A DNA stretch of 40,339 nucleotides from Escherichia coli (lineage in GTDB: Bacteria; Pseudomonadota; Gammaproteobacteria; Enterobacterales; Enterobacteriaceae), in assembly GCF_003334815.1 (NCBI RefSeq), contig NZ_QOWO01000034.1. One strand, 5' to 3'. The translations under genes and the position numbers were made by a program. The notes under the pieces are model-generated. The model did no database searches and was not told where the DNA came from. It worked only from the letters and a program-made list of their open reading frames with translations. Below are positions 11,214 through 11,559 of this stretch, piece by piece; the first letter of the stretch is position 1, and each line of letters opens with the position of its first letter.

Positions 11214-11468
11214 TTCACCGGTGGATGTCGGTGCGGCTGGTGCTCCGTCGTAATGCCACAAAGGTTGTTGCTCTGGATTGCTCTGTTCATACCGGGAACC
11301 TGGCGTCTGAATCAGGATCTTATGGCTGAACAATCCCTTGCCTTCAAATGTCGTAAATGGCGCATCGGCGGGCAGCAACAGGTTATGCAGTGACTCGACG
11401 TTGTCGGCCTGCTCCATGCAATACGGTTTAATGACGTTGGCTATTTCCGGCAGATTTTTCAGAAACAT
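11214..11468 (-). pseudogene. possible gene remnant between yiaT and sgbE (may correspond to K-12 pseudogene fragments ysaC/ysaD; uncertain)
   Basis: Minus-strand ORF 10995..11468 starts MFLKNLPEIANVIKPYCMEQADNVESLHNLLLPADAPFTTFEGKG... with no clear RBS and then runs antisense into yiaT; only the intergenic part is listed. Confidence 0.3.
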
Positions 11469-11559
11469 ACTGGTTTAACGCCAGCAGCGTGGAAGCGGCG
11501 TTACAGCAAGGAACATATCAATTCGTAGTGCCGGGGCGATGAAGCCCCGGCGTGAGGGA

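Follow-up and report, generated by a model that had tools for sequence, protein, structure and literature searches.

The yiaT-sgbE spacer of Escherichia coli K-12: a probable double-deletion scar of a glycosidase, symporter and regulator module

In the K-12 reference annotation (MG1655, NC_000913.3), two pseudogenes, ysaC (b4648) and ysaD (b4649), lie between sgbE and yiaT; they alone are annotated in this spacer, where no CDS is listed. The closest described enzymes are the GH127 beta-L-arabinofuranosidases with solved structures, namely HypBA1 of Bifidobacterium longum (3WKW) and a Geobacillus enzyme (4QJY). The CACCPPN segment of HypBA1 carries the catalytic and zinc-binding cysteines. The closest gene arrangement is that of the MelR-melAB type, in which an AraC-family regulator gene is divergent from the genes of a GPH symporter and a glycosidase. 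At the RNA level, previous work has reported that stable stem-loops without a U-tract stand at the steady-state 3' ends of Rho-dependent E. coli transcripts and block 3'-5' exonucleases (PMC6061677). Reporter cassettes have been inserted into the K-12 chromosome at the ysaC-ysaD junction itself (PMC12361893), and this was the only relevant paper in our literature search on ysaC and ysaD, which otherwise returned mostly unrelated genes of Lactococcus and Yersinia. No paper describing the locus was found in the searches on yiaK-S, sgbE, yiaT and GH127.

In the present study, we analysed the yiaT-sgbE spacer within a 40,339-nucleotide stretch of E. coli DNA (contig NZ_QOWO01000034.1), hereafter called the window. 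Sequence comparison suggested that the spacer is very probably a non-functional scar, left by two deletions in an ancestral three-gene module and carrying a hairpin that is older than both deletions. The features of the locus are collected in Table 1.

Table 1. Features in and around the yiaT-sgbE spacer (window coordinates unless L002 is named; L002 is the intact reference genome NZ_AP022036.1)
Feature	Position	Strand	Description
yiaT	10473-11213	plus	Open reading frame list and K-12 annotation; MipA/OmpV-family outer membrane protein; left flank of the scar
157-codon frame	10995-11468	minus	MFLKNLPEIANVIKPYCMEQ...; 157 codons, uninterrupted; runs antisense into yiaT
Frame codons 1-14	11427-11468	minus	Antisense to ysaC (codon-to-coordinate map)
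Frame codon 15		minus	Bridges the deletion 2 junction
Frame codons 16-79		minus	Cover annotated ysaD; GH127 match stops at codon 78
Frame codons 80-85		minus	Spacer
Frame codons 86-157		minus	Antisense to yiaT
Retained yiaT-downstream spacer	11214-11240		All 27 bases as in intact L002, L006 and L088, where they likewise follow yiaT
ysaD (b4649)	11232-11423	minus	K-12 annotation; internal/C-terminal piece of a GH127 glycoside hydrolase gene
Deletion 1	junction 11235-11240; L002 9092-9307		About 216 bp; GGCTGG 6-bp direct repeat
Deletion 2	junction 11424/11425; L002 9492-13512		4021 bp; blunt, without microhomology
ysaC (b4648)	11427-11528	plus	K-12 annotation; last 33 codons and stop of an AraC-family regulator gene
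Hairpin	11530-11551		GC-rich; 8-bp stem, 6-nt loop, no U-tract; between the converging ysaC and sgbE stops
sgbE	11560-12255	minus	Open reading frame list and annotation; L-ribulose-5-phosphate 4-epimerase; right flank

Gene remnants and deletion junctions in the spacer

The ends of the flanking open reading frames placed the spacer, 346 bp long, at 11214-11559, between the end of yiaT at 11213 and the minus-strand end of sgbE, the terminal gene of the yiaK-S operon, at 11560, exactly the gap given in the preliminary description of this DNA. A 471-bp probe covering 11150-11620 was 100% identical to MG1655. Over the 6 kb compared with NC_000913.3, one base differed, at 10581 in yiaT, which is A in the window and T in NC_000913.3 and changes yiaT codon 37 from TAT to AAT (Tyr to Asn). 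The window thus stems from a K-12-like strain or a derivative of one, and not from the reference sequence as such. The RefSeq PGAP annotation labelled both spacer fragments 'incomplete; partial'. The preliminary description had mentioned short K-12 pseudogene fragments in this place, and correctly so, as NC_000913.3 has ysaC and ysaD at these positions. The spacer remnants are therefore an already annotated K-12 pseudogene pair, and the finding is real but ordinary. What the present analysis added to the annotation was the identity of the parent genes, the junctions at base level, the distribution in the population and in outgroups, and evidence for an ancient origin.

The translation of ysaD was compared with the intact 659-aa protein of E. 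coli L002 by BLASTP, and it matched residues 559-621 with 56 of 63 positions identical (89%, E = 8e-39); at the nucleotide level, the homology to the GH127 gene spanned 11241-11424. Only 63 hydrolase codons are left in ysaD, which has no start, no stop and none of the N-terminal 558 residues, and PGAP described it as a 'hypothetical protein' that is 'missing N-terminus and C-terminus'. Intact GH127 orthologs stood in the same yiaT-sgbE locus in four E. coli genomes (L002, L006, L087 and L088) and in Citrobacter, Enterobacter and others. Judged by its in-frame similarity, its incompleteness and the intact ortholog at the same locus, ysaD is a pseudogene fragment of a GH127 hydrolase. The intact parent aligned with the solved beta-L-arabinofuranosidases at E values of 2.8e-232 (4QJY) and 1e-149 (HypBA1, 3WKW), and its CACCPPN segment, at about residues 412-418, lies outside the part that ysaD retains. 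Because the CACCPPN region, the start and the stop are all missing, ysaD cannot be an enzyme. The best NCBIfam match of the parent was aceric acid hydrolase, with 454 bits against a cut-off of 950. The E. coli parent is beta-L-arabinofuranosidase-like, with L-arabinofuranosides as candidate substrates.

The translation of ysaC matched residues 239-271 of the 271-aa L002 regulator, with 32 of 33 positions identical (97%, E = 8e-23, BLASTP). PGAP annotated it as a partial AraC-family regulator without the N-terminus, and in the NCBIfam scan the parent regulator matched the AraC, RhaR, MelR and similar models. By this similarity, ysaC is the gene remnant of an AraC-family regulator, from its C-terminal HTH region. 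It has no start codon of its own, and since only the extreme C-terminus is present, no DNA-binding or sensing domain can form. The preliminary description had regarded the spacer as the decayed remnant of one former gene. The remnant character was borne out, as both E values make the fragments gene-like far beyond chance. The single gene was not: there are remnants of two genes on opposite strands, ysaD on the minus strand and ysaC on the plus strand, and the reading frame that had been quoted for the former gene is chimeric. As to decay, the loss came about mainly through two deletions instead of slow point mutation, and substitutions built up later.

The deletions were mapped by pairwise alignments of the window with the intact locus of L002. 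In L002, the gene order is yiaT (plus), the GH127 gene (minus, 659 aa), an MFS transporter gene (minus, 466 aa), the AraC-family regulator gene (plus, 271 aa) and sgbE (minus). The transporter is a glycoside-pentoside-hexuronide:cation symporter of the GPH family (TIGR00792, above cut-off). The breakpoints of deletion 2 in L002 fell at 9491/9492 and 13512/13513. From the hydrolase gene this deletion took 85%, counted from the 5' end (GH127 codons 1-557 and a portion of codon 558), and from the regulator gene 88%, again from the 5' end (codons 1-237 and one base, the first, of codon 238). The complete GPH/MFS symporter gene and the 225-bp divergent intergenic (promoter) region were lost with them. 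Deletion 1, whose segment in L002 has GGCTGG at both ends, took two REP-like palindromes and the end of the GH127 coding sequence, namely codons 622-659 along with the larger part of codon 621. These palindromes stand between yiaT and the GH127 gene of intact strains (L002 9092-9200). The GH127 product has 659 aa in L002 and E. coli B, where the stop codon of the gene falls within the second REP, and 656 aa in O157:H7 and MFDS1019527; since the stop lies inside the REP in some alleles, the REP sequence altered the C-terminus of the coding region there. If the REPs entered the intact lineages later, deletion 1 could have been smaller, and either deletion may have come first.

The junctions were further examined with probes. 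In most of the genomes that lacked a whole match, megablast split the 471-bp probe at query 275/276, which corresponds to window 11424/11425, and the left part adjoined a GH127 protein gene and the right part an AraC family transcriptional regulator gene. Compared as counts, the probes for each junction, including the 100-bp deletion 2 probe, and the 471-bp probe holding both were found whole in 2461 genomes apiece. These equal counts argue against single-deletion intermediates, of which the junction-specific probes gave no sign. The results were consistent with one origin of the scar, which would be the simplest account.

According to the sequence comparisons, the ancestral locus read yiaT, REPs, GH127 gene (minus), GPH symporter gene (minus), divergent promoter region, AraC-family regulator gene (plus), hairpin and sgbE (minus). 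The blunt 4021-bp deletion took the transporter gene and the promoter region together with the 5' parts of the two genes on either side, those of the hydrolase and the regulator, and the deletion of about 216 bp between the GGCTGG repeats took the 3' end of the hydrolase gene and the REP elements. Left over were 63 codons in ysaD and 33 in ysaC, with the hairpin kept intact. As both remnants lack start codons and a promoter, both are inert and have drifted since. No contradiction of the deletion-scar reading was found in the comparisons made.

The divergence of the remnants was also considered. Between ysaD and each of five intact E. coli alleles, 20-23 of 189 nt differed, and 7-9 codons carried nonsynonymous changes; the intact alleles differed among themselves at 0-8 nt over the same 189 nt. 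Seventeen ysaD differences were polarised with E. whittamii and Escherichia sp. E1V33: seven fell on the K-12 branch, eight on the branch of the intact E. coli alleles, and two were ambiguous. Four of the seven K-12-branch changes were at sites invariant in all eight other species (alignment columns 28, 72, 164 and 183), as would be expected of a sequence freed from selection. The distance of the ysaD remnant was 9.6% to the intact E. coli alleles and 10.7-12.4% to other Escherichia species. As the remnant is about as far from the intact E. coli alleles as from other Escherichia species, the haplotype either dates far back or entered from a divergent lineage. Rapid decay as the source of the 10% divergence was rejected, since only about half of the changes (7 of 17) are on the K-12 branch, and the divergence therefore mostly reflects an old haplotype split.

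The 184-bp ysaD piece showed zero differences between the window and three other scar-type strains. In the flanks of these strains, yiaT had 11-14 differences from the window over 741 sites, and sgbE 18-40 over 696 sites. We infer that the two bracketing indels shield the 184-bp remnant from recombination with intact alleles while the flanks exchange freely, and that the remnant has been passed on as one block since a single ancient event. The ysaC piece resembled the sgbE flank, having polymorphisms in common with intact alleles except for a cluster at 11461, 11462, 11468 and 11471, which belongs to the window/K-12 haplotype. These four substitutions lie within 11 bp (CGCAAACACACC to CAGAAACATACT) and were seen neither in the intact alleles examined nor in the three other strains of the scar type, and the adjacent 184-bp ysaD piece had no such change. 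The substitutions at 11468 and 11471 raise the complementarity with CCAGCA at 11481-11486, which would suggest a single event of the template-switch type.

The hairpin beside sgbE

The preliminary description had pointed to a GC-rich hairpin without a U-tract just 3' of sgbE, and we found it as described, with a perfect 8-bp stem. It consists of GCCGGGGC (11530-11537), GATGAA (11538-11543) and GCCCCGGC (11544-11551), and it lies 1 nt past the stop of ysaC (the regulator gene) and, on the minus strand, 8 nt past that of sgbE. The 8-bp stem formed on both strands, with z scores of -3.4 and -3.2 against shuffles, and the motif was unique in the window (0.02 expected by chance). No T-run follows the stem on the minus strand (ACUACGAAUUGAU) or on the plus strand (GUGAGGGAUUACU). 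A consensus terminator scan, which required at least 5 T in 8, did not call the hairpin. An Rfam scan of 10400-12400 at a permissive E-value gave a single match, in which the hairpin scored 19 bits with CRISPR-DR16, where 35 are required (E 0.45); as it lay below the gathering score, it was set aside as a chance match. The promoter and terminator scan of 11000-11800 yielded nothing exceeding shuffle expectation, and its two terminator-like calls, at 11436-11451 (plus) and 11486-11468 (minus), had weak stems of 5-6 bp.

The 31-nt spacer that holds the hairpin (11529-11559) was identical at 31 of 31 positions in the intact alleles of L002, L088 and L089, which indicated that the hairpin is older than the deletions. 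In L087, one change was found in the loop and one outside the stem, and E. whittamii had one compensatory pair (G-C to U-A) and one mismatch. Salmonella diarizonae, Citrobacter and Enterobacter had no hairpin, and the two stop codons nearly abut there; the hairpin is thus an insertion of the Escherichia lineage.

Most likely, and with a confidence a little better than even, the hairpin would be a protective stem-loop at the 3' end of the yiaK-S operon mRNA, of the U-less, Rho-dependent kind; formerly, it may also have been the 3' stem-loop of the converging regulator mRNA. The yiaK-S operon is probably little expressed under standard conditions. The supplementary Term-seq files of Adams et al. 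2021 had no entry for sgbE, ysaC, ysaD or yiaT.

The hairpin might instead be a functionless, lineage-specific insertion, such as a small palindromic element, that merely persists. Its absence from Salmonella, Citrobacter and Enterobacter would fit such an element, and so would the two independent deletions that end at or beside it, one in the loop (O157:H7) and one with the loss of sgbE (E. whittamii). Nevertheless, the stem showed no change among E. coli alleles with up to 7.6% divergence in the adjoining sgbE, E. whittamii carried the compensatory G-C to U-A change in the stem, and a second copy of the hairpin was absent from the 40-kb window. We consider this explanation unlikely, if worth keeping in mind. 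Somewhat less probable still is a canonical Rho-independent terminator, possibly bidirectional, for sgbE and for read-through from yiaT. The strength of the GC stem-loop, which lies in a 32-nt stretch folding at about -20.8 kcal/mol, and its position between convergent genes, adjoining the sgbE and ysaC stops, would suit a terminator, but the U-tract was lacking on both strands and the terminator scan passed the hairpin over. The protective 3' stem-loop therefore remains our preferred reading of the hairpin.

The two deletions near the hairpin were observed in the following form. In O157:H7 (L006 8718-8740), the island is kept, and about 9 kb is missing, comprising sgbE through yiaK and most of yiaJ, including its 5' part (window 11542-20527). 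The ends of this deletion lie in the hairpin loop and inside yiaJ (about 20527), with a 4-bp CGAT microhomology. In E. whittamii (L007, reverse-complement 11432-11480), sgbE was apparently deleted precisely; the hairpin is followed by the last sgbE codons and stop and then directly by the 3' end of sgbU, and this loss was the second independent deletion ending beside the hairpin.

The minus-strand frame and the distribution of the module

The preliminary description had drawn attention to a minus-strand reading frame without a ribosome-binding site that runs antisense into yiaT. The frame was found, and the 25 nt upstream of its ATG (TCCACGCTGCTGGCGTTAAACCAGT) contained no Shine-Dalgarno-like GGAG or AGGA. 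The codon map in Table 1 shows that this 157-codon frame is a chimeric chance frame and not one former gene. In the NCBIfam scan of the full frame, no family was matched. A ribosome-binding site, conservation of the frame and annotation were looked for as signs of a small protein, and none of them was found.

These results bear on two further explanations. We hold it very unlikely that the scar is not wholly inert, either in that the ATG at 11466-11468 (minus) gave rise to a translated chimeric de novo gene, or in that the Escherichia-specific hairpin is a fragile site that has seeded deletions here more than once, such as those of O157:H7 and E. whittamii. Taken by itself, the idea that the scar gave rise to a new small protein, translated from all or part of the chimeric frame, is more improbable yet. 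The frame does run uninterrupted for 157 codons, and its ATG was made by the substitutions at 11461/11462/11468/11471, the three other deletion-type strains examined having GTG. Against translation stand the missing Shine-Dalgarno sequence, the deletion of the promoter region of the ancestral module, and the location of the sole promoter-like hit in 11000-11800, which lies downstream of the frame start and antisense inside yiaT. In addition, the frame as a whole matches no protein family, half of it is antisense to yiaT, and it is not annotated as a CDS in NC_000913.3. A non-functional double-deletion scar accounts for the spacer far better, and we further examined how the scar and the intact module are distributed.

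By whole-probe megablast match, the K-12-type scar was present in 2461 of 5426 complete E. coli genomes (about 45%). At least 80% of the island and its flanks was covered in 2312 of the 5426 genomes (about 43%), including B, C and O157:H7, which, like L002, have the intact three-gene module in the gap between yiaT and sgbE. For the outgroup survey, the GH127 protein was used to fetch loci, with one genome per species, and tblastn was run with the neighbouring proteins. The AraC-GPH-GH127 trio was found in about 70 species, and the full order lyxK-sgbU-sgbE-AraC-GPH-GH127-yiaT-yiaU in Citrobacter youngae, Pseudocitrobacter, Enterobacter, Lelliottia and Huaxiibacter. Since the same order is found in other enterobacterial genera, the intact state is ancestral and the state of the window was derived by deletion. 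The preliminary description had allowed for a chance frame, should no genome hold a homolog and should all relatives have an identical spacer. The homolog search clearly returned intact GH127 and AraC-family orthologs, and in the comparison of the locus with Citrobacter and other E. coli, the spacer was not identical across relatives.

The opposite polarity, with the short spacer ancestral and the GH127-GPH-AraC module a horizontally acquired island in other strains, would agree with the high variability of the locus in E. coli (O157:H7, B2 strains and IS1-deleted ETEC all differ) and with the presence of the GH127 gene in distant taxa, such as Bradyrhizobium (about 71% identity), but was rejected on the synteny of sgbE-AraC-GPH-GH127-yiaT-yiaU in at least five other genera and is scarcely conceivable, as the fragments correspond to internal and C-terminal coding parts of two genes and agree with these in frame, orientation and order, and an insertion cannot create matches to gene interiors.

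Apart from the K-12-type scar, several other states of the locus were observed, and the module is repeatedly lost or degraded within E. coli. In some strains aldB directly adjoins sgbE, in others a frameshifted GH127 gene, and one ETEC strain has an IS1-associated deletion at the locus. In SF-468 (L004), yiaW-yiaV-yiaU-yiaT is absent and aldB abuts sgbE; in WP4-S17-ESBL-03 (L089), the same four genes are absent and aldB abuts the frameshifted GH127 gene. Between yiaY and aldB there is a Fic-family gene. Within the operon, an internal stop in yiaN was seen in WP3-S18-ESBL-09 (L002 18348-18491) and a frameshifted lyxK in ETEC4070 (L005 7176-8580). Such independent yiaK-S pseudogenes suggest weak selection on this sugar-utilisation neighbourhood in parts of the species.

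The significance of these results beyond annotation hygiene is small. The K-12 ysaD is assigned a GH127, beta-L-arabinofuranosidase-like parent, and a module for the uptake and hydrolysis of glycosides, kept by B, C, O157:H7 and many Enterobacteriaceae, has been lost from K-12 and about 45% of sequenced E. coli. This loss could explain strain differences in the use of plant-derived L-arabinofuranosides. The position of the ysaC-ysaD junction in non-functional DNA also supports its use as a chromosomal insertion site.

Comparison with known systems

The hairpin resembles the stem-loops at the 3' ends of Rho-dependent E. coli transcripts (PMC6061677) in that it is likewise stable, stands directly after a stop codon and has no uridine-rich stretch; that class is defined by mapped 3' ends and Rho dependence, and the likeness of the hairpin to it is one of sequence features alone. 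Like the MelR-melAB type, the intact module has an AraC-family regulator gene divergent from the genes of a GPH symporter and a glycosidase, whereas in ysaC only the extreme C-terminus of the regulator survives. With the GH127 enzymes HypBA1 of B. longum (3WKW) and 4QJY of Geobacillus, the intact E. coli parent compares as a full-length homolog, whereas the window keeps less than 10% of the gene, from its C-terminal part only, without the CACCPPN segment, the start or the stop. With K-12 ysaD and ysaC there is no difference at all: the spacer of the window is the same object, identical in sequence and position.
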